Assembly: GCA_963806165.1 (NCBI GenBank)
Contig: CAWDWZ010000006.1
Location: 657,037-721,036 of the forward strand
Length of the DNA stretch: 64,000 nt
Direction of reading: 5' to 3'
Source of the DNA: Thermoanaerobaculia bacterium
GTDB lineage: Bacteria; Acidobacteriota; Thermoanaerobaculia; Multivoradales; JAGPDF01
Shown here: piece by piece, positions 15,017-30,903 of the stretch
Layout of the letters: every line of letters begins with the position of its first letter
How positions within the stretch are numbered: position 1 is the stretch's first letter
Translations under genes and position numbers: made by a program
The notes under the pieces: generated by a model
What the model was told of the DNA's origin: nothing
Database searches by the model: none
Seen by the model: only the letters and a program-made list of their open reading frames with translations

Positions 15017-15861
15017 GGCGCAGATCGCCGGGAACCGGCTCCGTCCGCGGCCGCCGGAACCTGCGGGGTTGGCGGAGCGCTCGGAATGATCGGAACGCTC
15101 GGAGCGATCAGAACGCTCGGAGGGACGCGCAGAAACCGGGCGCGGAAGAGCCCGGCGCGGGCAAGGAAACCGGCGAGCGCGACCCGCAGCACTCCGAAGC
15201 CGTAACGCACCGAAGCCTCGAAGCGGATCGAGGAGGCCTCGGGAAAATAGCTCGCCGGGCAGGAGAGCTCGCCGACGCGGCAGCCGGCGGCGAAAGCCTG
15301 CGCGAGGATCTCGTTGTCGAAAACGAAGTCGTCCGAGTTGCGTTCCAGAGGCAGGCGCTCGAGAACTTCGCGCCGGTAGGCACGGAGACCCGTGTGGTAT
15401 TCGGAGAGCTTCTGTCCGAGCAGGAGGTTCTCCACCAGGGTGAGAAAGCGATTGGCGACGTACTTGTAGCGCGGCATGCCCCCGGCTAAAGCGCCGTTCC
15501 CGAGAATGCGCGAGCCGAGGACGATGTCGTAGTCGCCGTAGGCGATCATCGCCGCCATGGCCGGCACCAGGTGCGGCGTGTACTGATAGTCGGGATGGAG
15601 CAGGATGATGATCTCTTCGGGACCGGCGAGCGCCGCGGCATAGCAGCTCTTCTGGTTGCCGCCGTACCCCCGGTTCTTCGGATGCAGGTGGGTTTCGATG
15701 CCCAGCCGGCGGGCGATCGCGACCGTTTCATCCGCCGAGGCGTCGTCCACGAGCAGGACCCGGTCGACGACACCCCGATCGATGTCGCCGAAGGTCTTCT
15801 CGAGAGTCGCCGCGGCGTTGTAGGCCGGCATCACGACGCAGACGCGCTTTGCGAGCATCAT
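15013..15861 (-). CDS. Family 2 glycosyltransferase (polyprenyl-phosphate / dolichyl-phosphate sugar transferase-like).
   Basis: VCVVMPAYNAAATLEKTF...VLLVDDASADETVAIARRLG...HPKNRGYGGNQKSCYAAALA is the classic GT2 (DPM1/GtrB-like) N-terminal domain with the DxD region. Confidence 0.85.
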   Translation of the reverse strand: MMLAKRVCVVMPAYNAAATLEKTFGDIDRGVVDRVLLVDDASADETVAIARRLGIETHLHPKNRGYGGNQKSCYAAALAGPEEIIILLHPDYQYTPHLVPAMAAMIAYGDYDIVLGSRILGNGALAGGMPRYKYVANRFLTLVENLLLGQKLSEYHTGLRAYRREVLERLPLERNSDDFVFDNEILAQAFAAGCRVGELSCPASYFPEASSIRFEASVRYGFGVLRVALAGFLARAGLFRARFLRVPPSVLIAPSVPIIPSAPPTPQVPAAADGAGSRRSAP

Positions 15862-15966: not shown

Positions 15967-18900
15967 TTGAGCACGATCGATCCGCGACTGGGGAGCCTCC
16001 TCGACCGGCGCTACCGGATCCTCGAGCGCGTCGGAGAGGGCGGGGCGGGCGTCGTCTACCGTGCCCTGCACGAGGAGATGGACCGGCCGGTCGCGATCAA
16101 GGTGCTGCATCCGGAGCTCTTCCCTTCCCCGGTCGCCCTGGCGCGCTTTCGCCGTGAAGCCCGGGCGGCCGGCGCCCTTGTCCATCCGCACGCCGTGACG
16201 GTTTTCGACTTCGGCCGCACCGAAGAGGGCGAGCCCTACCTCGCCATGGAGTACTGCGACGGTGGCGCGCTCTCGGACCGCATCGCCGTCCAGGGTGCGC
16301 TGCCTCCGGCGGCGGTCGCCCAGCTCCTCGAGGGGATCGCGGCGGCGGTCGATGCCGCGCACCGCCAGGGGATCGTGCACCGCGACTTGAAACCGGGCAA
16401 CATCCTGTTCGCCGGCGCGATCGCCAAAGTCGCCGACTTCGGACTCGCCCGCATGCTCGAGACCGACGATCCCGGACTCACCGGTGGACATGCCATCGGC
16501 TCCCCGTTCTACATGAGCCCCGAGCAGTGCCAGGGACGCTCGGCCGGGACGGCGAGCGACATCTACAGCCTGGGTGTCATCGTCTACACCCTGCTCACCG
16601 GCGAGGTGCCGTTCCCGCGCGGCACGGCGCAGGAGGTGCTCCTCGCGCATCTCACCGAGGAGCCGCGCTCGCCGCAGGAGATCGCGCCGCACCTCGGGCG
16701 GGCGGTGGCACTCGCCGTGCTGCGGGCGCTCGCCAAGAACCCGGACGCGAGACCGGGGAGCGCCGGCGAGCTTCATGCCGGACTGCTCGCGGCGCTCGAC
16801 CAGGAAGCCACCGCCGCGAGCCCGGTGCCGAGCCTCGCAGCGGCGGTCGCGCCGAGCGCGTCGTTCGAGGGTGCGGCGCCTCTCCCGGCACCGCCGGGTC
16901 CGCCGGCCGCCGCGCGCCTGCGCCGCGCGGTGCGCGACCGCTCGAGCGGCGCGCCCTCCGAACCGATCGGCCGCGGCGAGGAGCTGGCCCTCCTCACCGA
17001 GCTGCTCGAAGCCGCCAGCGCCGGAAGCGGGCAGCTGGTCACCATCGCCGGAGAGCCGGGGGCCGGCAAGTCGACGCTGGCGCATGCCTTCCTGCGCCGG
17101 GCGCGGCAGATCGCTCCCGGAGCGCAGCTCGCCCTGGGACGATCGCCCGAGCACTTCGGCTCGGCCGAGGCCTACTCGCCCTTTCTCGACGCGCTGGGCA
17201 ATCTCCTCGCTGGCGGCGGGCGCGAGCGCCTGGTTCCCCGCCTGCTCGAGCTCGCGCCGACCTGGGCGGTGCACTTTCCTGGGCTGGCGAACGAGGCCGA
17301 AGCGGGGGCGGGCGAAGCCCTCGCCGGCATGCGTTCGCGCGACCGCATGCCGCGCGAGCTCGCCGCGTTCGTCACCGCCATCACGGGCGGCGCCGCCGGG
17401 CGTCCGCTCGTGCTGCTGCTCGAAGACCTGCAGTGGGCCGACCCGGCGAGCATCGACCTGCTGGTCTATCTCGCGCCGCGCCTCGAGGGCCTGAAGCTCC
17501 TCCTGGTCGGGACCTATCGCCCGGCCGACGTCGAGTCGCAGCGTCACCCGCTGCGGGCCGCGCTCGCCAGCCTGGGGCGTGGCGACCTGCCGTGGAGCGA
17601 GATCGCGCCGGCGCCGTTCGCCGAAACGGAAGTCGCCGCTTTCCTCGCCCGCGAGCTCGGCGCGCCGCCGCCGCCCGAGCTCACCGCCTTCGCGCTCCGC
17701 CGCACCGAGGGCAATCCGCTCTTTCTCCTGAACGTCCTCAACCATCTCCTGCAGTCGGGCGCGGTGACCCGGGAGGGCAACCGCGTGCTGCTTCAGCGCT
17801 CGCTCGACTCGATGGAGCGCATCGTGCCCGAGGGGATCGTGGCGCTCATCCGCGACAAGGTCGAGCGGCTCGACGAAGCCGACAAGCGGCTGCTCTCGGT
17901 GGCGAGCATCGAGGGGCGCGAGTTCACCGCTGCGGTGGTGGCCGAGCTCACCGACCGCGACGAGATGGAGATCGAGGAGCGCCTGCGCACGCTCGAGGCG
18001 GCGCATCGCCTCGTCGAACCGATCGGCGACGTCGAGCTCGCCGGAGGTCTGGTGAGCCAGCGCTACCGCTTCGTGCACTCGCTCTACCAGCATGCCTTCT
18101 ACGACTCCCTGGCGCCCAAGCGCCGGGCCGCCAAGCACCTCCTGGCGGCGGAGGCGCTCACCCGCCTGCACGCCGGACGGCTCGACGCGCTGCGCGTCGC
18201 TCTCGCCCTGCATTTCGAGAAGGGCCGCGACGCCGGGCGCGCCATCGAGCAGCATCTGGCCGCCGCCGAGCTCGCCGCGGCGCGCAATCCGCGCGACGCC
18301 CGGCCGCTCCTGGCCAAGGCACTCGAGCTCACCGGCAAGCTCCCGCCGGAGGAGTCGGCCGCGAGGCGCGCGGAGCTGCTCATCCGCCTCGGCCGCCACG
18401 ACGCCGAGACCGCGGAGTTCGCCGGCGACGTCGAGCTTTACAGCCGCGCCGAGCAGGCGGTCTCGGAGGCGCTCGTGCTCGAGCCGGGCTCGGTCGAGGC
18501 GCGCACGGTCCTCGGCCTCATCCATCTCGAGCGCGGCGAGAACGAGCGCGCCCTGCTCGATTTCGCGCGCGCTCTCGAGCGTGTGCCGGGACATGCCGCA
18601 GCCTGGGACGGCCTGTCGTACCTGTTCAAGAACACCGGGCTGTGGGCGGCGTCGCTCGCCGCGCAACAGCAGGCTGCGGCGCTCGACGACCGCTTCGCGC
18701 ATTCGATCCGGCGCCTCTCGGTACTGATCTACGAAGGCCGGCTCGACGAGGCGCGGGCCGAAGCGACGGCGCTCGTCCAGAGACGGCCGAAGTTCGCGCA
18801 CTACAATTACTGGCGGGGGATCACCGAATGGTACGCCGGCGAGCGCGGCGAGGCCCGGCGCTGGATCGAACAGGCCTACGCTCTCGATCCCGCCGACCCG

Positions 18901-19296
18901 ATCGCGCAGGGAGTCCTCGCCTTCGTTCTCGCCGCTTCCGACCGTCCAGAGGGTGCCGAGTCCGCCGAGACCGCCGAATCTGGTAGTTCGGCGACCGCGC
19001 GGGCGCGCGCGCTGCTTGCGACCGCCGAGCCCGGCGCCGCCGCCGACGGCACTTTCACTTACTGGATCGCCAAGGTCCACGCTCTGTTGGGGGACACCGA
19101 GGCCGCGCTCGACTGGCTCCGCAAGGCCGCGAAGCTCGGCTACTGGGACGCCCCCTGGATGAGACGAGACAGCGCCCTCGCCGCTCTTCACCCCCTCCCC
19201 GAGTTTGCTGCCCTCGCGCACGAGATCGAAGCCCGGCAAGAGCTCTTCCGCGCCTTCGTCCACAAAGAGGCCCCGGCGAGCCTGCCGCTCGCTTGA
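15967..19296 (+). CDS. Multidomain Ser/Thr protein kinase: Hanks-type kinase, then an AAA/STAND-like P-loop NTPase, then C-terminal TPR repeats (1109 aa).
   Basis: Kinase motifs: RYRILERVGEGGAGVVYRA, AIKVL, HRDLKPGNILF, DFGLA, SPFYMSPEQ. Walker A: TIAGEPGAGKSTLAH. The C-terminal half has repeated TPR-like helices (...EARTVLGLIHLERGENERALLDFARALERVP...). TTG start. It is divergent from the GT2 operon. Confidence 0.85.
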   Translation: MSTIDPRLGSLLDRRYRILERVGEGGAGVVYRALHEEMDRPVAIKVLHPELFPSPVALARFRREARAAGALVHPHAVTVFDFGRTEEGEPYLAMEYCDGGALSDRIAVQGALPPAAVAQLLEGIAAAVDAAHRQGIVHRDLKPGNILFAGAIAKVADFGLARMLETDDPGLTGGHAIGSPFYMSPEQCQGRSAGTASDIYSLGVIVYTLLTGEVPFPRGTAQEVLLAHLTEEPRSPQEIAPHLGRAVALAVLRALAKNPDARPGSAGELHAGLLAALDQEATAASPVPSLAAAVAPSASFEGAAPLPAPPGPPAAARLRRAVRDRSSGAPSEPIGRGEELALLTELLEAASAGSGQLVTIAGEPGAGKSTLAHAFLRRARQIAPGAQLALGRSPEHFGSAEAYSPFLDALGNLLAGGGRERLVPRLLELAPTWAVHFPGLANEAEAGAGEALAGMRSRDRMPRELAAFVTAITGGAAGRPLVLLLEDLQWADPASIDLLVYLAPRLEGLKLLLVGTYRPADVESQRHPLRAALASLGRGDLPWSEIAPAPFAETEVAAFLARELGAPPPPELTAFALRRTEGNPLFLLNVLNHLLQSGAVTREGNRVLLQRSLDSMERIVPEGIVALIRDKVERLDEADKRLLSVASIEGREFTAAVVAELTDRDEMEIEERLRTLEAAHRLVEPIGDVELAGGLVSQRYRFVHSLYQHAFYDSLAPKRRAAKHLLAAEALTRLHAGRLDALRVALALHFEKGRDAGRAIEQHLAAAELAAARNPRDARPLLAKALELTGKLPPEESAARRAELLIRLGRHDAETAEFAGDVELYSRAEQAVSEALVLEPGSVEARTVLGLIHLERGENERALLDFARALERVPGHAAAWDGLSYLFKNTGLWAASLAAQQQAAALDDRFAHSIRRLSVLIYEGRLDEARAEATALVQRRPKFAHYNYWRGITEWYAGERGEARRWIEQAYALDPADPIAQGVLAFVLAASDRPEGAESAETAESGSSATARARALLATAEPGAAADGTFTYWIAKVHALLGDTEAALDWLRKAAKLGYWDAPWMRRDSALAALHPLPEFAALAHEIEARQELFRAFVHKEAPASLPLA

Positions 19297-19345: not shown

Positions 19346-22324
19346 CTAGAACTCCCCCTTCTTCTCCAGCAGCTCGAGCGCGCGTTTCGACGCCATCCAG
19401 TCGCTTTCGATCTTCCACGACCAGGCGTGTGGAGGCTGCTGCTCCTGGCCCGACTCGAGGGCGACCTGGAACCAGCCGTCGGCGTCGACGAAGCGCCTCT
19501 CGCTCGCCGCCTTGACGCCCATCACCCAGCCGACGCTGGCTAAGTTGTCCAGGTGCGGTTCCGGATCCCACACGGAGTCGGCGTCGCCCTGGCCTACGAG
19601 GTAGAGAGCTGCCCGAACGAAAAAGTCGCTGCTCCCCTGGTCCAATGCGACCTCGGCCGCCAGAGCCTGCCAGCGTGTCCCGCCGACTTCCTTGAGGTGC
19701 AGCAAGGCAGCGATCTTCAGCACCCGAACGACGCCCGGTCCGGTTGGCTTGTCATGGCTCGGAAAGAGTGCGAAGAGCAGCTCGTACTTGCGGAATTGGT
19801 AGAGAATCAAAGCGTCCTGCACTGTGGGAAGGTGCTTCGCTCGGTACCAGGCCGTTGCTGCGGCCTCTCCGGACTTCTCGACAATGAGGTCGTAGGTGTC
19901 GAGACGAATCTTGACCGCCCACTCCGGCGCTGGTGCCGGGAGGCTCTCGAGCAACGGAAGGGCGGCCTCGAGGCCATCCTTCTTGCCCAGGGCGATCGCC
20001 GCGTCCGCCAGGACATAGGAGGGAATTCCGGCGGCGACCAACTCTCCGAACGCCCGCTTTGTCTGCTCAAGTGGCCGCCCTCCGAAGGTGGCGACGAAAG
20101 CCTCCGGCAGGATCCGGCTCCAGGCCCCTACGATGCCGGTAGGACTCGATGCGAGCTCCTTGGCCGCGACCGTGAAGTCATCGAGACTCCACCTGGCGCG
20201 CGCGACAAGCGCGGCCGCCTCGAAGCTCTCTGGATAGCGCTCCAGGCACGCTTGCGCAAGCTCGAGCGCGCTCTTGAAGCGCCCGCGCGCCAGCTCGATC
20301 TCGGCGCCCTCGAGGAGTGCGTCCTCCTTGAACGTCGCTATCGCCGGCTCGACGAGCTTCCAGGCGGCCTTCGGATCTCCCATACGCAGCTTCAGGCGCG
20401 CCGCTTCGCTCCGCAGGTAGGCCCAGCGGATGGAACCCGGATCAGGATTGCGGGCGATCGCCGCCGCGACCGCCGTGTAGGCGCCTGCGAAATCGCCTCG
20501 CTTTTCCAGGAAGTCCACCAGCGGCGAGACTCCACCATCCGGATCGCGGGCGATCACCTCGTAGCGTGAGCGCACGAAGGCGTCGTCGACCTTGCCGAGT
20601 TTCGAGAGCGCATCGAGCGCCACGGTCTGGGTGTAGGTCGGCATCGCTAGGTCGTCAACCATCTCGCGAAGACGCCCGGTCTCCTCGCGCATCTCGGCGA
20701 CAAGCGCAGGGAGCTCCTCGCTTCGGTGCGGCGCCACCTCCGCGGCGGAGTGCGAGAACGTCTCGAAGAGCCAGGGACTCGTCAGGTTGCGGTGCGCGAC
20801 CCGGGCGGCGACGACCCGATGCGACGGCCGCGTATCGAGCTGCACGAAGAGCGCCGGGATCGGACGGCGACGAAACGGATCCGTGCTCACACTGTGTTCG
20901 GCGATGGCCTTGCTCAGGTCGAGAAGCACGCTGCTCCCGAGCGAGTGCGACGACTCGATGAGCTCGGCCAAGGGCCGGACCTCCCGCTCGCCCCCAACCA
21001 CCGCACCACTTACCGTAAGCCAGCGTTGGAGCTCGCTTGCTGCTCCCTCCGCTGGCTCGACAATCGCGGACGCGAGCCTGAGCGCGGCGGGCTTCGACGA
21101 GAGCTGGCGCAGGACGAATTGCGCTTCGCCGTAAAGACCCGAATAGAAGGCACTGCGGTAGAAAGCTTCGACCGCAGGGGCGCCCAGCGCCGTGCCGCTG
21201 AACTGGGCCGCACACTTCGCGACGGCGACTTCGAAGTCGCGCGTTCGAGACTCGGCTCCAATCGGGTCCTGGGCCACTCCACCCACGTCCGGGAATCCAC
21301 ATGAACGCGCAGAGCGGAACGCCGCTTCGGCCAGGTGGCGACCTGCGCCGATGCCGCTCTCGAACTCTCGCAGCTGCACTTCGAAACCCAGCTCTGCAAG
21401 ACCGCCCTGATCGTCATACGTGCTTCCTTCTTGCGCGGCGCGGAAACGTTTGATGTCGCCGCGCTCGGCGAGCAGGGCGAGTCGGAGGAGGTGGGCGGAA
21501 CTCTCCGTGGGATTACGAGCGCACAACGTATCCAGCCTCTTCTCCTGTCCCGCGACGAACAGCCGAATCGGCTCGTCTTCGGGGAGGGTGGCGCTCGCGC
21601 GAGCCGCGGCAGCTTCGTAGCCGAGAGCCCAGGTGAGGAGCGCTTCGCTTCCTTCGTTGCCGCGGATCTCGAGAGCTTTTTCAAGGGCGAGCCAGGCCCA
21701 GGCCTGTGCGAGCAGAGCGTCGGACAATTCGAGTTTGTCGGTGCTCAAGACTGAAAGCCACGCCAGGCTCGAGACCGTCGTGCGAATCGTCTCGCTGTCG
21801 GATTTCGTGATGGGTACGGCAGGATCGAGCGCCAAGATTGCGCTCAGGATCTTTTGCGGATCGGGCTCGTCCAGAGTTCTCCGGAGCCGTTCGAGTGCTT
21901 CCGGATCGCGGACGGGAGGGCGCTTAGCGACGGATGGCCCGTTGCTGGCGCCGAGTTGCCGCGCGTAACGCACGAGCAGATCGGTCGACTCCTCGAAGCC
22001 GGGATAGGCGGAGAGATCGCCGAGCTCGTCGCTTCCGCCAGAGATTCGCCATTGGTTCGCCCGGAACTGCGCCGTCGCAGCCCGCGACTCGGTGCCGGAG
22101 AGCAGCCGCTCGATGGCGCCCACGGCCGCGAGAAGGCGTCGATCGGGCTGGAGACGGTAGCGCTTGCGAACCGCTTCTGGCAGAGCGCTTGGCGTGACCG
22201 CGAGCAGAGCCTCCGGGGCAAACGATCGCGGCGCAGGCGTTGAATCCGCGGAGCCTCGCTGATTGCAGGCTATCGACAAGACAGCAACGATCGCGCCCAG
22301 AGCGCGCCTCGATTGAGGAATCAA
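19346..22324 (-). CDS. Large probable lipoprotein of unknown function (992 aa, alpha-helical / TPR-like). It is the last gene of the type III PKS operon.
   Basis: TTG start at 22324 overlaps the DUF2277 stop (TTGA). The N-terminus MIPQSRRALGAIVAVLSIACNQ has a signal peptide and a lipobox-like SIAC. The uninterrupted 992-codon frame has normal protein-like composition, which is unusual in this indel-rich assembly. I do not recognise a catalytic motif. Confidence 0.7.
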   Translation of the reverse strand: MIPQSRRALGAIVAVLSIACNQRGSADSTPAPRSFAPEALLAVTPSALPEAVRKRYRLQPDRRLLAAVGAIERLLSGTESRAATAQFRANQWRISGGSDELGDLSAYPGFEESTDLLVRYARQLGASNGPSVAKRPPVRDPEALERLRRTLDEPDPQKILSAILALDPAVPITKSDSETIRTTVSSLAWLSVLSTDKLELSDALLAQAWAWLALEKALEIRGNEGSEALLTWALGYEAAAARASATLPEDEPIRLFVAGQEKRLDTLCARNPTESSAHLLRLALLAERGDIKRFRAAQEGSTYDDQGGLAELGFEVQLREFESGIGAGRHLAEAAFRSARSCGFPDVGGVAQDPIGAESRTRDFEVAVAKCAAQFSGTALGAPAVEAFYRSAFYSGLYGEAQFVLRQLSSKPAALRLASAIVEPAEGAASELQRWLTVSGAVVGGEREVRPLAELIESSHSLGSSVLLDLSKAIAEHSVSTDPFRRRPIPALFVQLDTRPSHRVVAARVAHRNLTSPWLFETFSHSAAEVAPHRSEELPALVAEMREETGRLREMVDDLAMPTYTQTVALDALSKLGKVDDAFVRSRYEVIARDPDGGVSPLVDFLEKRGDFAGAYTAVAAAIARNPDPGSIRWAYLRSEAARLKLRMGDPKAAWKLVEPAIATFKEDALLEGAEIELARGRFKSALELAQACLERYPESFEAAALVARARWSLDDFTVAAKELASSPTGIVGAWSRILPEAFVATFGGRPLEQTKRAFGELVAAGIPSYVLADAAIALGKKDGLEAALPLLESLPAPAPEWAVKIRLDTYDLIVEKSGEAAATAWYRAKHLPTVQDALILYQFRKYELLFALFPSHDKPTGPGVVRVLKIAALLHLKEVGGTRWQALAAEVALDQGSSDFFVRAALYLVGQGDADSVWDPEPHLDNLASVGWVMGVKAASERRFVDADGWFQVALESGQEQQPPHAWSWKIESDWMASKRALELLEKKGEF

Positions 22325-22596
22325 AGCGGGGCTCCAAATCTCGCGGCGGATCTGGCTTTCGCGCGCTGGGCTTCGATCTCACGGTCGCGCGGCTCAGCGG
22401 TCGTGACCAGCGATTGGATGAGCGTGCTTGCCGCAGCAGCGATCTCCTCGACAGCACGGTTGAAGGCGTTCGTGTTGCTCTTGGAGGGCGCGTTGAAACC
22501 GCTCACCTTGCGAACGAATTGCAGCGCCGCATCCCGTATCTCCGGCTCCGTGGCCGGGGGCTCGAAGTTGAAGAGAGTCTTGATGTTCCTGCACAT
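22321..22596 (-). CDS. DUF2277-family small protein.
   Basis: 91 aa. MCRNIKTLFNFEPPATEPEIRDAALQFVRKVSGFNAPSKSNTNAFNRAVEEIAAAASTLIQSLV is a conserved small cytosolic family. Its stop overlaps the start of the downstream lipoprotein. Confidence 0.6.
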   Translation of the reverse strand: MCRNIKTLFNFEPPATEPEIRDAALQFVRKVSGFNAPSKSNTNAFNRAVEEIAAAASTLIQSLVTTAEPRDREIEAQRAKARSAARFGAPL

Positions 22597-22634
22597 GGCG
22601 ACTCCGTTAAGGTCTGACTGCCCGGGTGATGCAG

Positions 22635-23558
22635 CTACTGGCGCCGGTAGACGTCGGTGCTCAGGTACTTCAAGCCGGAGTCGCCGAGGAGGGTGACCAC
22701 CGTGGCGTTCGGCCCCAGGCGTTCCGCCACCCGCAGCGCGGCGACGACGTTGGCTCCGGACGAGGTCCCCGCGAAGAGGGCCTCCTCCCGCGCCAGGCGC
22801 CGCGCCATCTCCTTCGCGTCGTCGGTCGGAACCGGCAGGATCTCATCCACGAGGGTCGGGTCCCACAGCGGCGGAGTGAAGCCGATCCCGACGCCTTCGA
22901 TCTTGTGGGGCCCGGCTTCGCCTCCCAGCAGGACCGAAGATTCTGCGGGTTCGACGACGACGATCCGGATACCCGGCTGGTGTCGCTTGAGCACGGTGGC
23001 GACGCCGCGCGAAGAGGCCGCCGTACCCACGCAGTGGACGAAGGCATCGACCGTGCCTTGCGTCTGTCTCCAGATCTCCTCGCCCAACGGGTAGTAGCCA
23101 GCGATGCTGTCGTGGTTGTTGAGCTGGTCCGTCCAGTAGGTGTGCGGCTCCCGGCTCAGCCCACGGGCGACCTCGATCATCTCGAGGATCAGTTTCCGGG
23201 TGGTGCGGCCATCCGCGCTCGCGACGAGCGTCAGCTCGGCGCCCAGCGCCGCCATCTGATCCAGCTTCTCCTGGCTGAACGCATCGGAGCTGACGATCCG
23301 GAGGCGGTAGCCTTTGGCGGCGCAGACCAGTGCGAGCGAGGTCCCGGTGCTCCCGCCGGTGTACTCGAGGACGCTGTCTCCGGGCCGGAGCCGGCCGTCC
23401 TCCTCCGCCCGTGAGATCACGGTTTGCGCCATCCGGTCTTTGAAGCTGCCGGTGGGGTTCTCCCACTCGAGCTTCACGAAGACTCTCGCGGAGCGGGCTG
23501 GAACGATCTTGCGCAGTTGAACCAACGACGTGTTGCCAATCGCGTCGAGGACATCCAT
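22635..23558 (-). CDS. cysK: Cysteine synthase / O-acetylserine sulfhydrylase family PLP enzyme (CysK/CysM-like).
   Basis: MDVLDAIGNTSLVQLRKI...VFVKLEWENPTGSFKDRMAQ contains the PLP-lysine motif and then GSTGTSLALVCAAKGY. It is 307 aa. The ORF 22635..24095 extends upstream out of frame with the GNAT gene. The start is the ATG at 23558. Confidence 0.85.
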   Translation of the reverse strand: MDVLDAIGNTSLVQLRKIVPARSARVFVKLEWENPTGSFKDRMAQTVISRAEEDGRLRPGDSVLEYTGGSTGTSLALVCAAKGYRLRIVSSDAFSQEKLDQMAALGAELTLVASADGRTTRKLILEMIEVARGLSREPHTYWTDQLNNHDSIAGYYPLGEEIWRQTQGTVDAFVHCVGTAASSRGVATVLKRHQPGIRIVVVEPAESSVLLGGEAGPHKIEGVGIGFTPPLWDPTLVDEILPVPTDDAKEMARRLAREEALFAGTSSGANVVAALRVAERLGPNATVVTLLGDSGLKYLSTDVYRRQ

Positions 23559-23580
23559 CGGTCGAGCTCTCCTTTCTGCT

Positions 23581-24105
23581 CTACCCGAGCTCCCGCCGCA
23601 TGATGACCCGCAGGTGCATCGGGAAGCCGCCGGCGGCTTCGCGCTGTTGCAGCCGGACGAGGCCGGGGGTGAGCTCCTGGGGCGCGAGGATGCGGAAGCC
23701 GCGCTTGGCGTAGAACGGCGCGTTCCACGGCACGTCGGAGAGCGTCGACAGGGTGATCGCCTCGTAGCCACTGACGCGGGCGATCTCCGCCACGACTTCG
23801 AGGAGCTCGCTCCCCACGCCTTTGCCGGCGACGTCCGGGTGGACGTCGATCTCCTCGAGGTGGGCGAGACCGTCGATCTCGCTCGTGAACGCCATGCCGA
23901 CCGGCGGCGAGTCTTCGATCGTCGCCACCCAGAGCGTTCGGGTGCGCACGTGGTGGGCGAAGAGCGCGTGCGGGAAGTGCTGCGCCCAGAACGCGTCGAA
24001 GGCGGCGTGACCGCGAAAGCGCCCGGTCGCCGCGCGCTCGATCCCCGGCAACCAGGGGATATCGTCCATCTCTCCCCGACGGATGAAGACCTCACCGCGC
24101 ATCAT
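23581..24105 (-). CDS. GNAT-family N-acetyltransferase.
   Basis: 174 aa. The acetyl-CoA-binding region ...IDVHPDVAGKGVGSELLEVVAEIARVSGYEAITLST...FYAKRGF is present. The start overlaps the FAAL stop by 4 nt. Confidence 0.75.
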   Translation of the reverse strand: MMRGEVFIRRGEMDDIPWLPGIERAATGRFRGHAAFDAFWAQHFPHALFAHHVRTRTLWVATIEDSPPVGMAFTSEIDGLAHLEEIDVHPDVAGKGVGSELLEVVAEIARVSGYEAITLSTLSDVPWNAPFYAKRGFRILAPQELTPGLVRLQQREAAGGFPMHLRVIMRRELG

Positions 24106-25904
24106 CCACCTGTTCTCCCGAGCCTCCAGAATGCGATTCGCGAACGCACGAGCGCCCCGAACATGCGCAGCGGACCGACCGCGGCCGGCGGCGCCAGCGT
24201 GCCGGAGAGATGGCGTCGCAGCGCTTCGCCGCGCCGGATCTTGCCCGACGAAGTGCGCGGGAGCGTCCCCGGCGCGAGCAGTTCCACCCGGTCGACCGCC
24301 AGACCGACGCGCGTCAGCACGGCTTCGCGGGCGCGCGTCCGGAGCCGTTCGCGGCGCTCCGCCGGGACGCCGTGCCGGTGCTCGATGAACAGCACCACCG
24401 CCTCGGTCTCCCGCCCCGCCGGCAGATAGCTCGCCGCCGCGACGCAGCCACGCCGCACGTCGGCGAGCTCGGTCACCGCGAGCTCGAGATCGGCGGGCGC
24501 GTAGTTGCGGCCGCGCACCAGGAGAATCTCTTTCGCACGGCCGGTGAGAAAGAGCTCACCCTCGTGCAGGAAGCCGAGATCGCCGGTATCGAGCCAACCG
24601 TCCTGGAGGGCGGCGGCGGTCGCCGCCGGCTGATCGAGATAGCCGCGCATCAGGGACGGGCCGGTGACGAAGAGATGCCCGACGCGATCTTCGGGGACCA
24701 CCTCGCCGCGGTCGTCGCGCAGCTCGAGGCGGAAGCCGGCGAGCGGCCTGCCGACCGACGCGATCTCGACGAGAGGACCCCCGTAGAGCGCGGGCTCGTC
24801 GAGCAGCATCGTATCCGGCGGGATCGCGACCGCTTCGCCGCGTTCTGCGAGCGCCGCGCGCTCGAACTGCCGGGAGACGAACGGCCGTTCGAGATCCGCG
24901 AAGGTCACCGCGAGGGCCGCTTCGGAGAGACCGTAGACCGGAGTCAAGGCCGCGGCGTCGAAGCCCCAGCGCGCGAAGCGCGCGGCGAAGGCCCGCAGCA
25001 CCTCCGGCACCACGGTCTCCGCGCCGCAGAGCGCGATCCGCCAGTCGGAAAGATCGACCCCCTCCATCTCCTCGTCCCGTATGCGCTCGGTGGCGAGCGC
25101 GTAGGCGAAATTCGGCGCCGGAGAGATCGTACCGCGATGCCGGCCGAGGGCACGCAGCCAGAGCGCCGGCCGCGCCACGAACGCCTCCGGCGGCACGAGC
25201 GTCAGCACCGACGGCCGTTCGAGCGCCGGGAAGACGCAGCCGATGAGCCCCATGTCGTGGTAGAGCGGCAACCACGAGACGCCGCTGATCGCGGTCGGGT
25301 CATCGCCGGGGTCGGCGACCGGCCAGAGCGCGTTCAGGGCCTCGACCTGAGCGAGAACTGCCGCCTGCGACAGGGCGACCGGCTTCGGTTCGACCGTGGT
25401 GCCGGAGGAGAACTGCACCAGCGCGAGGTCGGAGGCACCGCCGTCGCTCGCGAGCTCGGCGCCGCGCGGCAGCTCGGCGAGTGTCCGCCCGCCCAGCGCG
25501 GGCCGCGCTTTCGCCAGAGTCTCCCCGAGGAGCGCGCGCACCCGGCCGTCCGCGAGCAGCAGACGCGCGCCGGAAGCGCCGAGCATCGCCGCGGTGCGCA
25601 GGTGATATTCGGCGAGCCGGCCGAGGCGCACCGGCGGATAGAGCGGCACCGGCACCGCGCCAGCGAGCAGAGTGCCGAAGAAAGCGAAGAAGAAGTCGGC
25701 GCCGGTCGGATAGATGAGCGCCACGCGCTCTCCGGGCCGGATGCCCATCTCCGCGAGAGCGCCGGCGACGAGCGCGCTCTCCTGCTCGACCGCCGCCCAG
25801 GAGAGAAAAGTCTCGCGCTCGGCGCGATCGACCAGGCGCAGCCCGGTCTGCGGAAAGTCCTTGGCGCGCTGGAGGAGGCGCTGCAGCGTGTCGAGTCTCA
25901 TCAC
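24102..25904 (-). CDS. Fatty acyl-AMP ligase (FAAL) / adenylate-forming enzyme.
   Basis: 600 aa. AMP-binding motifs are present: LVQFSSGTTVEPKPVALS, WLPLYHDMGL, TGDLGFLHEGELFLTGRAKE, and PRTSSGKIRRGEAL at the C-terminus. An FAAL-type insertion is present. It is adjacent to an ACP. Confidence 0.85.
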   Translation of the reverse strand: MMRLDTLQRLLQRAKDFPQTGLRLVDRAERETFLSWAAVEQESALVAGALAEMGIRPGERVALIYPTGADFFFAFFGTLLAGAVPVPLYPPVRLGRLAEYHLRTAAMLGASGARLLLADGRVRALLGETLAKARPALGGRTLAELPRGAELASDGGASDLALVQFSSGTTVEPKPVALSQAAVLAQVEALNALWPVADPGDDPTAISGVSWLPLYHDMGLIGCVFPALERPSVLTLVPPEAFVARPALWLRALGRHRGTISPAPNFAYALATERIRDEEMEGVDLSDWRIALCGAETVVPEVLRAFAARFARWGFDAAALTPVYGLSEAALAVTFADLERPFVSRQFERAALAERGEAVAIPPDTMLLDEPALYGGPLVEIASVGRPLAGFRLELRDDRGEVVPEDRVGHLFVTGPSLMRGYLDQPAATAAALQDGWLDTGDLGFLHEGELFLTGRAKEILLVRGRNYAPADLELAVTELADVRRGCVAAASYLPAGRETEAVVLFIEHRHGVPAERRERLRTRAREAVLTRVGLAVDRVELLAPGTLPRTSSGKIRRGEALRRHLSGTLAPPAAVGPLRMFGALVRSRIAFWRLGRTGG

Positions 25905-25910
25905 GGGGGA

Positions 25911-26153
25911 TCAGCCGGGCAACTTGGTCTCGAGGAGCGCGACGAGATCGCCGAGCGTCGCGATTCTGGCCTCTTCGTCCGGATCCAGCGTGATCCGGAA
26001 CCGGTTCTCGACCTCCGCCGCGAGCGTCAGGAGCTTCAGCGAATCGAATCCGAGATCTTCCACCAAACGCAGCCGCGGATCGAAGGCACCGGCGAAGCCG
26101 AGATGCTGCCGCGCCACGGTGACGATGCCGTCCACGATCTCCTCGCGCGTCAC
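25911..26153 (-). CDS. Acyl carrier protein (phosphopantetheine-binding).
   Basis: 80 aa. The DLGFDSL Ser-attachment motif is present. The start overlaps the ICMT stop. Confidence 0.8.
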   Translation of the reverse strand: MTREEIVDGIVTVARQHLGFAGAFDPRLRLVEDLGFDSLKLLTLAAEVENRFRITLDPDEEARIATLGDLVALLETKLPG

Positions 26154-26734
26154 GGTTCACCCCACGGCAGGAGCCGCGCACGGCCCGCGAGACGCTGCCG
26201 GTAGTCGCCCGCCGCCACGAGCGCCCGTTCCTCGTGCCGGATGCGGGCCGCGAGCAGCAGGGCGTTGCCCGCGGTGGCGACGAGCGCCGTCACCCAGGCG
26301 CAGTGGACGAGCGGCAGTGCCGCGACCTCGATGGCCACGGCGACGTAGTTCGGATGGCGCACGAAACGATATGGGCCCGTGGCCACCGCCGGCAGGCCCG
26401 CGATGACGATGACCCGGGTGTTCCAGCGCTCGCCGAGGGTGAAGATCGCCCAGTAGCGCAGCGCCATCGCGAGCAGCACGATCCAGGTGGCGACGATCGC
26501 GACCGGCGGCACGAACGGGCGCCGGAAGAGGAGCACTTCGAGTGGACCCGCGGCCAGGAAGGCGGCGTGGGCGACTACCAGCAGCCAGTAGAAGCCGCGC
26601 GACTCCGCTTCGATGCCGCCCCGGGCGAACGATCGGCGCGCGTTGCGCAGCGAGAGACCCATCTCGAGGAGGCGCTCGACCGCCACCGCGGCGACGAGAA
26701 GAAGGAAGAAGAGCGTGCCGGGTGGAAGGCTCAC
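26150..26734 (-). CDS. ICMT-family membrane methyltransferase (SrsB-like O-methyltransferase partner of type III PKSs).
   Basis: 194 aa with multiple TM helices. ...ATGPYRFVRHPNYVAVAIEVAALPL...RIRHEERALVAAGDYRQ carries the same SAM-motif architecture as the gene at 6908 and as the Streptomyces SrsB class. Confidence 0.8.
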   Translation of the reverse strand: MSLPPGTLFFLLLVAAVAVERLLEMGLSLRNARRSFARGGIEAESRGFYWLLVVAHAAFLAAGPLEVLLFRRPFVPPVAIVATWIVLLAMALRYWAIFTLGERWNTRVIVIAGLPAVATGPYRFVRHPNYVAVAIEVAALPLVHCAWVTALVATAGNALLLAARIRHEERALVAAGDYRQRLAGRARLLPWGEP

Positions 26735-26744
26735 GCGGCAAAAG

Positions 26745-27870
26745 CTACCATCGCAGCAGGATTAGCTCGCTGCAGAAGCCGGGGCCGAGCGCGAGCAGCA
26801 TGCCGAGGCTGCCGGCCGGCGGCCGGCGCTCGGCGAGGGTCGCCTCGAGGACGAGCAGGACCGAGGTCGAAGAGAGATTTCCCACTTCGCGGAGACTCTT
26901 CCAGGTGAGCGCGAGCGCCCCGTCCGGCACCTCGAGCGCCTGCTCCATCGCCGTAAGCACCTTTGGTCCCCCGGGGTGACAGACCCAGGAGGCGATGTCG
27001 CGGCGCGCGAGTCCGCGCGCGGCGAGGAAGGCGTCGACGTCGGATCGCAGGTGCTCTTCGACCACCTTGGGGACGTCCGCGGAGAGCACGAGCTGAAAGC
27101 CGCTCTCCGAGATGTCCCAGCCCATCACGCGCTCGGAGTGCGGATAGAAGATCGAGCGCGTGGCCACGATCTCCGGACCCGGTGCCGCCCCGGAAGGGGC
27201 GGTTGCCCGCGCCTCGAGCGCGCGGGCGCGCTTGGCTCCGACCACCACGGCCGCCGCCGCGCCGTCGCCGAACAGGCCCGAGGCGATGAGGTTGGGGATC
27301 GAGAGGTCCTGGCGTTGGAGGGTCAGGGAGCAGAGCTCGACCGAAAGCAGAACCGCGACCTCCTCGGGAAAGCCGCGCACATAGTCGGCGGCGCGTGCGA
27401 TGCCCGCGGCGCCCGCGACGCAGCCCAGTCCGAAGATCGGAATGCGCTTCAAGTCGCTGCGTAGCCCCAGGCGATTGATCAGCCGCGCGTCGATCGAGGG
27501 CGTCGCGACGCCGGTGACGGTGACGAAGAAGAGCGCGTCGACGTCGGTCACCACCAGGCCGCACTTCCCGAGCGCCGCCTTGACCGCTTCGCCCCCGATC
27601 TCCTCGGCGATCCGGATCCAGGCGTCGTTGGAGGCGCCGAAAGTGGTGAGCGCCGGATAGTCCTCGATCGCGAGCGCGAGGTGGCGCCCGCCCACCAAGA
27701 CGTTCTTGTGCAGCTGCTCGATGCGCTCGAGATTGAAGTAGCGCTGCTCCCAGTAGCCGCGCAACGCGGCGAGCAGGGTCTCCTGATCGTAGTAGTGCCG
27801 CGGAAAGGCCGAACCGACCCCGGCGATCGACCGCGTTCGCCGCGTTCGCCGCGCTCGCCCCGCCGGTCAT
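26745..27870 (-). CDS. Type III polyketide synthase (chalcone/stilbene synthase superfamily). There is a one-base frameshift near 27818-27832, just after the start codon.
   Basis: The ORF 26745..27764 holds the active-site Cys (GLGCVAGAAGIARA), the catalytic His region (HPGGPKVLTAMEQAL) and the C-terminal GFCSELILLRW. The ATG at 27870 (MTGGASAANAANAV) is one frame off. Shifting once restores ...SIAGVGSAFPRHYYDQETLLAALRGYWEQ..., the canonical N-terminus. The shift site is a GCGAACGCG direct repeat. Confidence 0.85.
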
Positions 27871-28289
27871 CGCTCGTCCCCGAGGGTCGCGCGCGCGAGC
27901 GCCGCTAAAGCCAGTGCCGCGACGAGGTCGAGGATCAGGGCCCCGCGCGCCAGTTGCCAAAAGGGCGCGACCGGGAGGCGCGTCATGCCGGCCACGGCCA
28001 GGACGAGGAGCGGCCCGCGAAAGGTCCAGGCGGAGGCGCCGACCGCGATGCCGTCCAGCCACCAGCGCGGTGTCCGCCCCCAGACGAGGAGGAAGAGCGC
28101 CAGCAAGGCCAGGGCCTCGAGTCCCCAGGAGGCGAAGAGGATCGCGCCGGGCAGACCCTCGGGACGCGCCACGCCGCGGGCCGCGAGCGGCCCCAGGTCG
28201 GGAGCGAGACCGGCGGCGTCCAGGGCGAGCGTGCCCAGCGCAAGGCTGACCAGGAGGAGGGGTGCGGCGAGGGCGAGAAAGCGCAGCAA
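27867..28289 (-). CDS. Hypothetical four-TM membrane protein. It is the first gene of the type III PKS operon, and its stop overlaps the PKS start (ATGA).
   Basis: The most protein-like frame across 27867-28290 reads (TTG)LRFLALAAPLLLVSLALGTLALDAAG...WGLEALALLALFLLVWGRTPRWWLDGIAVGASAWTFRGPLLVLAVAGMTRLPVAPFWQLARGALILDLVAALALAALARA. The start codon is uncertain. The ORF can extend to 28733, but that would overlap arsR. Confidence 0.3.
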   Translation of the reverse strand: MLRFLALAAPLLLVSLALGTLALDAAGLAPDLGPLAARGVARPEGLPGAILFASWGLEALALLALFLLVWGRTPRWWLDGIAVGASAWTFRGPLLVLAVAGMTRLPVAPFWQLARGALILDLVAALALAALARATLGDER

Positions 28290-28433
28290 GGGAGCGAAAT
28301 GATACCCCGCCGGGCCAGGGTGACCGGCGAGCCGACTCTCCCGGCGGACCGACTCTCCCGACGGTGTGGCAGATCGAAGCCGCTGAAAGGCAGCCTCTTG
28401 ACAAAGGCGCCAACCTTCGATATTTTTGGAACT

Positions 28434-28787
28434 ATGGAATCCAAATCCGCGCTCGAACGTCTCTCGGCCCTCGCCCAGGAAACCCGTCTGGCGCTCTTCC
28501 GCCGCCTCGTGCAGCAGGGCCCGGAGGGGCTTGCCGCGGGCGAGATCGGCGAAGCGCTCGAGGTCCCCGCGCCGACCCTGTCGTTCCATCTCGCGCAACT
28601 CGAGCATGCCGGTCTCGTGGTCTCGCGGCGCGAGGGGCGCTCGATCCGTTACACCACGAATTTTCGCGCGATGGAGGAGCTTCTGACCTACCTCTACGAA
28701 AACTGCTGTCAGGCCGGTACCTGCCGCTCCCAAAACACCCCCCTCGTGGCGCTCGCGGGCGCCCGGAAAGGAAAGGTCGCAAAATGA
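28434..28787 (+). CDS. arsR: ArsR/SmtB-family metalloregulator.
   Basis: 117 aa. Winged HTH (...LFRRLVQQGPEGLAAGEIGEALEVPAPTLSFHLAQLEHAGLVVSRREGRSIRY...) with a Cys-rich C-terminus, ENCCQAGTC. The stop overlaps the arsM start (ATGA). Confidence 0.85.
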   Translation: MESKSALERLSALAQETRLALFRRLVQQGPEGLAAGEIGEALEVPAPTLSFHLAQLEHAGLVVSRREGRSIRYTTNFRAMEELLTYLYENCCQAGTCRSQNTPLVALAGARKGKVAK

Positions 28788-29668
28788 ACCGCGCAGAAAC
28801 GAAAGACGAGAAGCTGGTCGGTGAAGTGCGCAATCGCTATGGACGAATCGCCGCGGGCGAAATCTCCGGCTGTGGCTGCAACGTGGGTGCCGGGGCCGGA
28901 TGCGAAACCGCGGTGGCGGTCGGCATCGGCTACGGCGCCGACGAGCTCGCCCAGCTCCCCGACGAAGCCAACCTCGGCCTCGGGTGCGGCGCGCCGATCG
29001 GCTTCCTCGCGCTCGAGCCGGGCGAAACCGTGCTCGATCTCGGCTCGGGCGCCGGCATCGACGCCTTCCTCGCTGCCCGCCGCGTCGGACCCGAGGGACA
29101 TGTCATCGGTGTCGACATGACCCCCGAAATGCTCGACAAGGCACGCGCCGGAGCGCGGCGCATGGGCTTCGCGCAGGTCGAGTTCCGCGCCGGGCGGCTC
29201 GAGGCGCTGCCGGTCGAGGACGCCTCGATCGATGCCGTGACCAGCAACTGCGTGATCAACCTGGTGCCCGACAAGCCTGCCGTCTTCCGCGAGATCGCCC
29301 GGGTCCTGAAGCCGGGTGGCCGGGTGGTAGTCTCGGACATCGTGCTCGATCGCCCGCTGCCTCCGGCGCTCGCGGCCGATCTCCTGGGCTACGTCGGCTG
29401 TATCTCCGGCGCCGAGCAGAAGGCGCGCTACTTCTCCGAGCTCGCCGCCGCCGGTCTCGGAGAGATCGAGGTGCTGCGCGAGGTCGACTACTTGGAGACG
29501 GTCCTGCAGACAGTGCCGGAGGAGGTCGCGGCGCTCCTTGCGCGCACCGGCGTCAAGCTCGACGAAGTGCGCGGAACCGTGCGTTCGGTGACTTATCGCG
29601 CGCGGCCGACCGGCGCCGGAAAGGCGGCGGAGTGCTGCGGCACCGACTGCTGCGGGGGCGCGCGGTAG
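28784..29668 (+). CDS. arsM: Arsenite S-adenosylmethionine methyltransferase.
   Basis: 294 aa. A SAM-MT fold (VLDLGSGAGIDAFLAA) is present. Conserved Cys residues are at GCGCNVGAGAGCE, GCGAP and GCISG. A C-terminal Cys cluster ECCGTDCCGG is present. These are all typical of ArsM. Confidence 0.85.
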   Translation: MNRAETKDEKLVGEVRNRYGRIAAGEISGCGCNVGAGAGCETAVAVGIGYGADELAQLPDEANLGLGCGAPIGFLALEPGETVLDLGSGAGIDAFLAARRVGPEGHVIGVDMTPEMLDKARAGARRMGFAQVEFRAGRLEALPVEDASIDAVTSNCVINLVPDKPAVFREIARVLKPGGRVVVSDIVLDRPLPPALAADLLGYVGCISGAEQKARYFSELAAAGLGEIEVLREVDYLETVLQTVPEEVAALLARTGVKLDEVRGTVRSVTYRARPTGAGKAAECCGTDCCGGAR

Positions 29669-29673
29669 AGCGC

Positions 29674-30903
29674 ATGGGTCAGCCGCACATCGCGATTCTC
29701 GGCGCCGGACCGATCGGCCTCGATGCCGCACTTTGCGCCCTCGACGAGGGCTTCACGGTAACGCTCTACGAAGCCGCCGCGCACGTCGCCGGAAACGTCC
29801 GGCGTTGGGGACACGTCCGGCTCTTCACTCCCTGGGAGATGAACCTCTCGCAGCGCATGCGGCAGCATCTTGCCGCGCTCGGCGTGACGCTTCCCGAGCG
29901 CGGCGCGATCCTGACCGGAGCGGAGTTCTGCGACTTGGCGCTCGAGCCTCTCGCCCGATTGCCGCAGCTCGCGCCCTGCCTGCGCCTCGGGACGCGCGTG
30001 ATCGAGATCGGCCGCGAAGGAGTCCCCGCGCCCGAAGCGCTCGCCTCCCCGGTGCACGCCCGAAGGCCCTTTCGCCTGCGGGTGTCGGACGAGAGGGAGG
30101 AGGGCGAGGCCGCCGCGGCCGCGCGTGAACGCATCGAACGCGCCGATCTGGTCATCGACGCGACCGGTCTCTTCGGCCACCCGAACACGCTCGGCGACGG
30201 CGGCATTCCGGCGCCCGGCGAGCGCGCCCTCGGGGGCCGCATCGATCGCTTCCTGCCCGACTTCGAGCGTGATGCCGGCGCCTGGGGCGGGCGGGCGATC
30301 CTCCTCGCCGGCGCCGGGCACTCGGCGCAGACGGCGGCCTGTGCTCTCGCCCGTCTCGCGGCCGAGCATCCGGGGACGCGGGTCTTCTGGGTCCTGCGCT
30401 CGCCGAATCCGGACTTCGGCGTCCGCGCCGACGATCCCCTGCCGGAGCGCTCGGCACTCGCGGCGCGGGCCCGCGACCTCGTCGCTTTCGCTTCCGACGC
30501 GCTAGTGCCCTACACCGGCTCGGTTGTCCAAGGGCTCGCGGAGAAGGGCAGCCGGATCGAGGTCACGTTGCGGCGTACGACCGGCGAGGAGCGCCTCGAA
30601 GTCGACCGGGTTCTGTCGCTCACCGGCGGCGTCGGGGACTTTCGGCTCTACCGCGAGCTCGACATGCACGAGAGCGACGCCAGCGCGGCGCCGCTGGCGG
30701 TCCCTCCGGCGCTGGTCGACGACGGCGCCGGCGATGGCCCGGAGAGCGCGGGCCCTGGTGGGCGCGCGATCATGAACCCCGAGCCGAACTTCTTCGTCCT
30801 GGGCGCCAAGTCCTACGGCCGCGGTGCGACCTTTCTGCTGCGTACCGGCTATGCCCAGGTCGACGAGCTCTTCGCTGAGCTCAGCGGCGTTGCCGCCATC
30901 TGA
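29674..30903 (+). CDS. NAD(P)/FAD-binding oxidoreductase of unassigned function. Third gene of the arsR-arsM operon.
   Basis: 409 aa. The N-terminal Rossmann sequence MGQPHIAILGAGPIGLDAALCALDEGFTVTLYE is followed by a second dinucleotide-binding region, GRAILLAGAGHSAQTAA. The start is 6 nt after the arsM stop. It is not ArsH, ArsC or ArsO-like in size or motif, as far as I can judge. Confidence 0.65.
   Translation: MGQPHIAILGAGPIGLDAALCALDEGFTVTLYEAAAHVAGNVRRWGHVRLFTPWEMNLSQRMRQHLAALGVTLPERGAILTGAEFCDLALEPLARLPQLAPCLRLGTRVIEIGREGVPAPEALASPVHARRPFRLRVSDEREEGEAAAAARERIERADLVIDATGLFGHPNTLGDGGIPAPGERALGGRIDRFLPDFERDAGAWGGRAILLAGAGHSAQTAACALARLAAEHPGTRVFWVLRSPNPDFGVRADDPLPERSALAARARDLVAFASDALVPYTGSVVQGLAEKGSRIEVTLRRTTGEERLEVDRVLSLTGGVGDFRLYRELDMHESDASAAPLAVPPALVDDGAGDGPESAGPGGRAIMNPEPNFFVLGAKSYGRGATFLLRTGYAQVDELFAELSGVAAI

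Follow-up and report, generated by a model that had tools for sequence, protein, structure and literature searches.

Does a run of nine closely packed genes around a type III polyketide synthase (PKS) encode one new biosynthetic pathway, or does it join a pathway of known kind to unrelated neighbours? The question is raised by 64,000 nucleotides (nt) of contig CAWDWZ010000006.1 of a Thermoanaerobaculia bacterium (the whole stretch is called the window, and all coordinates are relative to it), in which an earlier note, made from the sequence alone, had proposed a nine-gene operon for a new lipid or natural product. We found that the conserved unit comprises a membrane protein here called TM4, the PKS, an ICMT-family methyltransferase, an acyl carrier protein (ACP) and a fatty acyl-AMP ligase (FAAL), usually followed by an oxidoreductase dependent on flavin adenine dinucleotide (FAD). 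This core is of an already published kind, and the features that looked new are neighbours in an interval of variable gene content.

Genes that travel with the polyketide synthase

The layout described in the earlier note was reproduced: nine minus-strand genes run in the same direction from 28289 down to 19346, and adjacent genes overlap by 4 nt or are no more than 38 nt apart.

27867-28289, minus strand: TM4, a 140-amino-acid four-helix membrane protein with no family match; first gene of the conserved block
26745-27870 (open body 26745-27866), minus strand: type III PKS (Pfam Chal_sti_synt_N/Chal_sti_synt_C)
26150-26734, minus strand: ICMT-family integral membrane methyltransferase, SrsB family (Pfam ICMT, 94 bits)
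25911-26153, minus strand: stand-alone ACP (Pfam PP-binding; DSL phosphopantetheine-attachment motif)
24102-25904, minus strand: FAAL (Pfam AMP-binding; NCBIfam PRK09192; FAAL structures)
23581-24105, minus strand: GNAT acetyltransferase (Pfam Acetyltransf_1)
22635-23558, minus strand: CysK-like pyridoxal phosphate (PLP) enzyme (Pfam PALP, 233 bits)
22321-22596, minus strand: DUF2277 protein (Pfam DUF2277, 125 bits)
19346-22324, minus strand: 992-amino-acid helical TPR-like envelope-anchored protein, probably a lipoprotein (weak Pfam TPR matches alone)

The ATG at 27870, at the head of the PKS gene, overlaps the TM4 stop codon (ATGA). A 10-nt gap separates the PKS and ICMT genes, the ICMT and ACP genes overlap (GTGA), 6 nt lie between the ACP and FAAL genes, and the FAAL and GNAT genes overlap again (ATGA). 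After a 22-nt gap comes the CysK-like gene, which has its own AAAGGAG ribosome-binding site; DUF2277 follows after 38 nt, and the TPR protein gene overlaps DUF2277 (TTGA).

Domains were assigned with Pfam and NCBIfam models, which upheld all domain calls of the earlier note, and solved relatives were taken from PDB matches. As the G+C content of the window is about 69%, at which long spurious open reading frames (ORFs) are common, we have relied on domain matches and conservation. By domains and solved relatives alike, a type III PKS with FAAL/ACP starter loading and an ICMT-family methyltransferase form a genuine cluster here. The PKS scores over the cut-offs of both Pfam models (PF00195, 65.8 bits; PF02797, 73 bits) and aligns end to end with its nearest solved relative, PKS11 of Mycobacterium tuberculosis (4JAO, 355 bits). 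Its motifs GLGCVAG, HPGGPKV and GNLSS align with their PKS11 counterparts, and their Cys, His and Asn are, as we take it from knowledge of PKS11, the catalytic triad. The translated ACP shows GFDSLKL, with the serine of the DSL motif. For the FAAL, the best NCBIfam model (PRK09192, fatty acyl-AMP ligase) gives 415 bits, under its 600-bit cut-off, and the top six PDB matches are all FAALs or FAAL domains (E. coli 3PBK, 7R7E-G, Legionella 3KXW, FadD23). The protein aligns without deletion over residues 338-380 of the E. coli FAAL, presumably where the N-terminal domain has its FAAL-specific insertion, and exceeds the E. coli protein by about 10 residues in this region. The stand-alone ACP beside the FAAL, with an ACP in 67 of 76 relatives, is consistent with acyl transfer to ACP and not to CoA. 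The nearest solved relative of the GNAT is the uncharacterised PA2271.

A scan of a genome collection with the PKS returned at least 543 relatives, of which the best 80 loci, nearly all labelled Thermoanaerobaculia or Acidobacteriota, were compared. The window proteins were searched against these loci, each with up to 10 kb per side, and the denominators below include only those of the 80 that have enough flanking sequence. Two extra loci outside the 80, L081 (a long-read assembly of a relative) and L083 (a short-read assembly), were reached through homologues of the lipoprotein. PKS identity to the window is 82-86% for L001-L007 and about 85% for L001-L007, L081 and L083 alike, which places these loci at about equal distance. 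Homologues were found as follows.

TM4: 52 of 75 PKS loci
ICMT methyltransferase: 70 of 77, next to the PKS gene
ACP: 67 of 76
FAAL: 61 of 70
FAD oxidoreductase (window 13829-15016): 50 of 64, directly after the FAAL gene in 46 of 56
GNAT: 4 of 67
Family 2 glycosyltransferase (GT2): 3 of 62
CysK-like enzyme: 0 of 62
DUF2277 protein: 0 of 62
TPR lipoprotein: 0 of 57

It is these co-occurrence counts that delimit the conserved unit given above and that place the CysK-like, DUF2277 and lipoprotein genes outside it. In the window, the five core genes other than the PKS gene are open, and the core is 73-89% identical to relatives. The GNAT gene, present only in L001-L004, L006, L007, L081 and L083, is an accessory gene limited to the nearest clade, where it overlaps the stop codon of the FAAL gene. 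Thus, the nine genes do not behave as one conserved unit. The order TM4-PKS-ICMT-ACP-FAAL is kept in related genomes, but the CysK-like and DUF2277 genes never accompany it there and the lipoprotein gene does so only in L081 and L083. The combination that the earlier note took to be new therefore reduces to a core of the published ftp type, with CysK-like and DUF2277 genes that are seen beside the PKS only here.

The interval between the GNAT gene and a gene that converges on it holds different genes from genome to genome.

15967-19296, plus strand: convergent Ser/Thr kinase gene of kinase-AAA-TPR type (Pfam Pkinase, AAA_16, TPR)

In L001 and L006, arsM-arsR and, divergently, TM4-PKS-ICMT-ACP-FAAL-GNAT are followed by some 400-600 nt and then by the homologue of this convergent gene, after which come GT2, the FAD oxidoreductase and an MMPL transporter. 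In L007, GNAT and the convergent kinase are separated by two genes, another kinase-TPR gene and a small one. In L083, GNAT is followed directly by the TPR lipoprotein alone, and in L081 by four different genes, the lipoprotein and a further 7 kb or so; both lack CysK-like and DUF2277 genes. The window interval holds the CysK-like, DUF2277 and lipoprotein genes. The first two of these lie outside the pathway, in the variable interval, and the lipoprotein gene is probably also outside it, as a lineage-specific neighbour. Third-position G+C content (GC3) is 0.76 for DUF2277 and 0.78 for the lipoprotein gene, against 0.84-0.92 for the core genes. All three genes are probably co-transcribed with the cluster by read-through; a promoter and terminator scan, which cannot settle co-transcription, returned nothing over shuffled expectation on the operon strand.

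The lipoprotein gene is found downstream of the cluster in L081 and L083 but not in the equally close L001, L006 and L007. A protein search gave about 50 homologues, the named members of which belong to Thermoanaerobaculia or Acidobacteriota, and a metagenome scan with the lipoprotein returned no relatives. Within 10 kb of three remoter homologues (L082, L084 and L085; identity 50-55%) there is no gene of the PKS cluster; they adjoin genes for a protein kinase or a TPR protein, both convergent, or for a histidine kinase lying upstream. The description of the window protein in the earlier note as a giant lipoprotein is plausible, as there is a signal peptide and about half of the homologues have a clear lipobox (AVSC, AVAC or ALGC); the remainder have an uncleaved-looking anchor without Cys, and the window signal peptide, which ends ...AIVAVLSIAC, has a residue at -3 that is not canonical. 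We also observed that this TPR envelope family and the variable interval recurrently stand beside Ser/Thr kinase genes with TPR, AAA or LanC-like domains (window 15967-19296, plus strand; L007 14296-16953; L082 13210-15693; L085 4784-7081), a hint that the lipoprotein is connected with signalling and not with the PKS.

For the CysK-like enzyme, a metagenome scan found at least 561 relatives, the best 80 at 79-85% identity, and the three long contigs that were checked span 55-69% G+C. The best 80 have no DUF2277, PKS, FAAL, GNAT or lipoprotein gene inside 8 kb, nor do they share a conserved neighbouring ORF. Judged from these neighbourhoods, it is a strongly conserved stand-alone enzyme and not a dedicated tailoring enzyme. 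All NCBIfam cysteine-synthase models score under their cut-offs (for example, cysKM at 289 against 344). The SFKDR motif with the PLP-binding lysine is kept. In canonical O-acetylserine sulfhydrylases (CysK/CysM) TSGNTG is the substrate loop and GTGGT the phosphate loop; here TGGSTG and GTAAS stand in their places. Because of the low scores and the altered loops its activity is uncertain, and it may differ from that of an ordinary cysteine synthase.

The start of the PKS gene and the displaced oxidoreductase

The frame problem that the earlier note flagged at the start of the PKS gene is real. The body is open from 27866 to a stop at 26745 (1122 nt). Of the possible start codons, the ATG at 27870 alone suits the arrangement of the operon, and its frame is off by one base from that of the body. 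The conserved part of the body begins SIAGVGSAFPRHYY at 27830, and the frame break lies within 27831-27867. No in-frame ATG, GTG or TTG exists for the PKS upstream of a TTG at 27764, and a start there would cut a conserved N-terminal segment that aligns with PKS11 residues 4-25. The window has 19 extra bases at the PKS start, including a 9-nt tandem repeat beside a GGGG run; one base fewer, for instance at 27858-27861 (GGG for GGGG), would restore the reading MTGGRARRTRRTRSIAGVG....

Among the 11 closest relatives, the PKS start forms an in-frame ATGA or GTGA overlap in ten and is likewise in frame in the eleventh, and the PKS of L083 is intact, at 374 amino acids. As the relatives are in frame, L083 is intact and the body and motifs are conserved, we favour an assembly error or a very recent mutation as the cause of the 1-nt break; the broken MMPL gene of the window (see below) and the many frame switches in the long-read assembly L081 favour it too. 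A programmed frameshift was also considered and rejected, since in the 11 closest relatives this conserved N-terminus is read without any change of frame.

The FAD oxidoreductase gene, the usual sixth gene of the cluster, lies beyond the interval to which the earlier note had confined the operon. It is about 9 kb from the FAAL gene with five genes between them, one of them convergent, and so does not belong to the same operon. It stands instead in a unit of three genes.

15013-15861, minus strand: GT2 (Pfam Glycos_transf_2)
13829-15016, minus strand: FAD-dependent oxidoreductase (Pfam FAD_binding_3)
11519-13832, minus strand: MMPL/RND-type transporter gene, frame-broken (Pfam MMPL on one fragment)

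The oxidoreductase resembles a class A flavoprotein hydroxylase or a geranylgeranyl reductase, and the NCBIfam geranylgeranyl-reductase and UbiH families match it under their cut-offs. The GT2 and oxidoreductase genes overlap by 4 nt (ATGA) and the MMPL gene comes next; in L029 the FAAL, GT2, FAD oxidoreductase and MMPL genes are contiguous. Given this placement of the unit next to the FAAL gene, a few lineages may glycosylate and export their product. The MMPL homologue of L029, a single ORF, matches frames -3, -1, -2 and -1 of the window in tblastn, and at least three frame switches are needed to read through; the window gene is either a pseudogene or a series of assembly indels. The assembly of L081 is riddled with frame switches.

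There is a caution here for genome mining: in a high-GC genome, close packing in one direction gave unrelated genes the look of tailoring enzymes, and the true sixth gene was to be found 9 kb off.

Known clusters, the proposed pathway and its rivals

A cluster of Acidobacteria bacterium Mor1 was matched in 2016, by order and sequence, to the alkylresorcylic-acid cluster of Myxococcus xanthus, with identities of 58% for the PKS, 54% for the methyltransferase, 54% for the ligase and 47% for the monooxygenase (PMC5006271). Mor1 is among our 80 loci (L066), and window proteins are 49-69% identical to its proteins. The ftp cluster of M. xanthus (FtpA PKS, methyltransferase, FtpC ACP, FtpD FAAL and monooxygenase) has the same enzymes in the same order as the window-type core, a likeness traced by way of the Mor1 cluster. 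FAAL- and ACP-dependent starter loading is credited to Hayashi et al. 2011 as cited in PMC5006271, and FtpA is described, in the accounts of Hayashi 2011 given in PMC5006271 and PMC10896814, as yielding alkylresorcylic acid from acyl-ACP starters. A homologous Myxococcota cluster has been catalogued as an alkylpyrone biosynthetic gene cluster (BGC0001831; PMC12766979). The window differs from ftp in a GNAT added in this clade, an oxidoreductase 9 kb off and arsR-arsM divergently upstream, and perhaps also in having TM4 ahead of the PKS and overlapping its start.

Operons that join a PKS, a methyltransferase and an FAD oxidoreductase are known from Streptomyces, Mycobacterium smegmatis, cyanobacteria and planctomycetes, where their products are alkylresorcinols and quinones (PMC10896814; PMC5916927). 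Like the window, srsABC of Streptomyces griseus and the pks10 operon of M. smegmatis encode a type III PKS, an ICMT-family methyltransferase and a flavoprotein oxidoreductase, and they make membrane phenolic lipids or polyketide quinones (PMC10896814; PMC5916927). Cyanobacterial hidABC and the planctomycetal operons have the same three enzyme types, and their alkylresorcinol products were demonstrated by heterologous expression (PMC10896814); unlike the window, they are ordered methyltransferase, oxidoreductase, PKS and have no FAAL/ACP pair. To our knowledge, srsABC and the pks10 operon have no dedicated FAAL and ACP for starter loading, and they also lack TM4 and GNAT. M. tuberculosis PKS11, in which the Cys, His and Asn are shared with the window PKS, differs in genomic context: it makes methyl-branched alkylpyrones, and its gene lies in a cluster with type I PKS genes.

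By homology to these systems, the FAAL would adenylate a long-chain fatty acid and load it onto the stand-alone ACP, and the PKS would accept the acyl-ACP starter, add malonyl units and cyclise the product, with an alkylresorcinol or alkylresorcylic acid as the result or else an alkylpyrone. The membrane-embedded ICMT enzyme would then methylate the ring, and the FAD enzyme would oxidise it towards an alkyl-methoxy-quinone. TM4, an uncharacterised protein, would be a partner at the membrane that is translated in coupling with the PKS, and the insertions that brought in the neighbours are probably the same set that shifted the FAD oxidoreductase by 9 kb into the GT2/FAD/MMPL unit. By analogy, the product is likely to be a methylated alkylresorcinol, alkylquinone or alkylpyrone lipid, and is likely to serve as a membrane lipid or an electron carrier.

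We consider it probable that the locus is a copy of the ftp/srs-type phenolic-lipid cluster, with a core of TM4, PKS, ICMT, ACP and FAAL (and the FAD oxidoreductase) and GNAT as an accessory, and that the CysK-like and DUF2277 genes, and probably the lipoprotein gene, are mere neighbours. Several observations weigh against this. As assembled, the PKS has no usable start codon; its nearest solved relative, PKS11, yields pyrones and not resorcinols; and the geranylgeranyl-reductase models score as well on the FAD enzyme as the hydroxylase models do, all of them under cut-off. In three related genomes the lipoprotein gene comes after the cluster, perhaps for reasons of function and not of common descent, and the short gaps without a predicted terminator mean that the downstream genes may share the messenger RNA, so that a lineage-specific tailoring role is possible. 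The wider claim of the earlier note, that all nine genes form one pathway to a methylated phenolic lipid with thiol or amino-acid decoration, in which the CysK-like, GNAT and DUF2277 proteins decorate and the lipoprotein delivers to the envelope, has these points in its favour: the shared direction, the gaps of 22 and 38 nt and the TTGA overlap, the lack of a terminator-like site from GNAT to the end of the lipoprotein gene, the lipoprotein downstream of GNAT in L081 and L083 too, and the altered substrate loop of a CysK-like protein that is perhaps no ordinary cysteine synthase. We nevertheless hold it to be highly improbable, as the CysK-like and DUF2277 genes are missing from 62 of 62 related loci and also from L083 and L081, PKS genes are never near the best 80 CysK relatives (within 8 kb), the surroundings of lipoprotein homologues of 50-55% identity are unrelated and, out to 10 kb, free of PKS-cluster genes, the content of the interval varies by genome, and the GC3 of DUF2277 and the lipoprotein gene is unlike that of the core.

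The chemistry may also differ from that of the phenolic-lipid reading, with alkylpyrones formed through lactonisation by the PKS, as by PKS11 and, in vivo, by M. xanthus, and the methyltransferase and FAD enzyme acting on pyrones or on something else. The match to the alkylpyrone synthase PKS11 (355 bits) as best solved relative and the filing of the homologous Myxococcota cluster as an alkylpyrone cluster (BGC0001831; PMC12766979) speak for this; we think it rather unlikely, since FtpA with acyl-ACP starters gives alkylresorcylic acid (Hayashi 2011, in so far as it is cited in PMC5006271 and PMC10896814) and the combination of PKS, ICMT and FAD enzyme is tied to alkylresorcinol-to-quinone routes in S. 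griseus and M. smegmatis (PMC10896814; PMC5916927). Less probable again is that the cluster is decaying here, such that the PKS frameshift is real, no polyketide is made, and the separated oxidoreductase and broken MMPL gene mark further loss. The out-of-frame ATG at 27870, with no other start ahead of the conserved N-terminal segment, the three or more frame switches that the MMPL gene requires and an insertion of about 70 nt in the promoter region, missing from the relatives, would all fit such a loss. However, the 1122-nt PKS body and the five other core genes are open and 73-89% identical to relatives, which is unexpected for an old pseudogene; single-base indels are frequent in long-read metagenome assemblies of this group, with many in L081; and the break lies beside a GGGG run and a 9-nt tandem repeat.

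TM4 and the divergent promoter region

The remaining interest of the locus lies mainly in TM4 and in the breadth of conservation of the cluster in a poorly cultured class. The four membrane helices claimed for TM4 in the earlier note agree with its AlphaFold model, which has four long helices (confidence score pLDDT 93). No Pfam or NCBIfam model matches the protein, a Pfam scan of 25 family members at E up to 1 gave scattered noise only, and the PDB yielded no specific fold match. A profile search gave 626 homologues, of which the best 120 are all hypothetical or nameless proteins; the organisms named among these 120 are Thermoanaerobaculia. Invariant residues include R3, E58 and D79, together with an FRGP motif. 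As judged from these searches, TM4 is the only conserved component of the cluster that belongs to an undescribed family.

TM4 lies upstream of the PKS gene in 52 of 75 related loci, and the two genes share an NTGA overlap, in frame with the PKS, in 19 of the 46 same-strand cases, including 10 of the 11 closest. In many relatives TM4 is on the strand opposite to the PKS (L021 5000-9766 and about 40 similar loci), where it heads a divergent run of a radical-SAM protein, a protein of unknown type, an NAD-binding oxidoreductase and a ferrochelatase-like protein, a run suggestive of haem synthesis. Of these four, the window has homologues only for the NAD-binding oxidoreductase and the ferrochelatase-like protein, which lie apart at 29680-30903 and 40382-41404. 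As TM4 is on the opposite strand in this subset of loci, its link with the PKS is positional and not strictly operonic.

We tentatively propose, although we lean against it at present, that TM4 is a dedicated new membrane partner of a FAAL/ACP-fed type III PKS, that the lipids are near-universal in Thermoanaerobaculia and that GNAT is a clade-specific modifier. TM4 could tether the soluble PKS to the membrane, or it could take the lipid product and pass it to the ICMT methyltransferase. If this proposal were true, methylated alkylresorcinol or quinone lipids would serve nearly all of the class as a component of the membrane or of respiration. Members of this class abound in soils and sediments and have hardly been cultured. 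That hundreds of their genomes contain the cluster points towards a conserved lipid of the membrane or of respiration, which could be searched for in environmental lipidomes.

Upstream of TM4, the operon diverges from arsR-arsM, as the earlier note had it; both ars genes (28434-29668, plus strand) score over their NCBIfam cut-offs.

28290-28433, no strand: TM4/arsR divergent intergenic region (alignment of relatives, promoter scan, sequence)
28434-28787, plus strand: arsR (ArsR/SmtB model, 66.8 bits, cut-off 55)
28784-29668, plus strand: arsM (arsenite methyltransferase model, 288 bits, cut-off 263)

An ArsR gene occurs in 11 of the 80 loci and lies divergently upstream of the cluster in the closest relatives. 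An alignment with five close relatives shows a conserved TATCAT box 9 nt upstream of the TTG start of TM4, and a TTGACA-17-TATTTT site in the intergenic region faces arsR. The window has about 70 extra nt at about 28314-28390 that are missing from the five relatives; this insertion, which contains a 17-nt tandem duplication (CGGGAGAGTCGG..., 28327-28360), parts the TATCAT box near the TM4 start from the remainder of the shared promoter region. In the close relatives, the arsR start is directly preceded by an imperfect palindrome, TTCnAnAATTnTnGAA, of which the window copy, TTCCAAAAATATCGAA (28394-28433), is more degenerate. To judge from its position and sequence, the palindrome may be an ArsR operator common to the divergent arsR-arsM and TM4-PKS units.

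Further along the window, at 30929-33346 on the minus strand, is a gene for an 805-amino-acid metallopeptidase of the fungalysin type (M36) that has both a PA domain and an FTP propeptide; the same gene is also found near the cluster in L003, L004, L008, L011 and L083.

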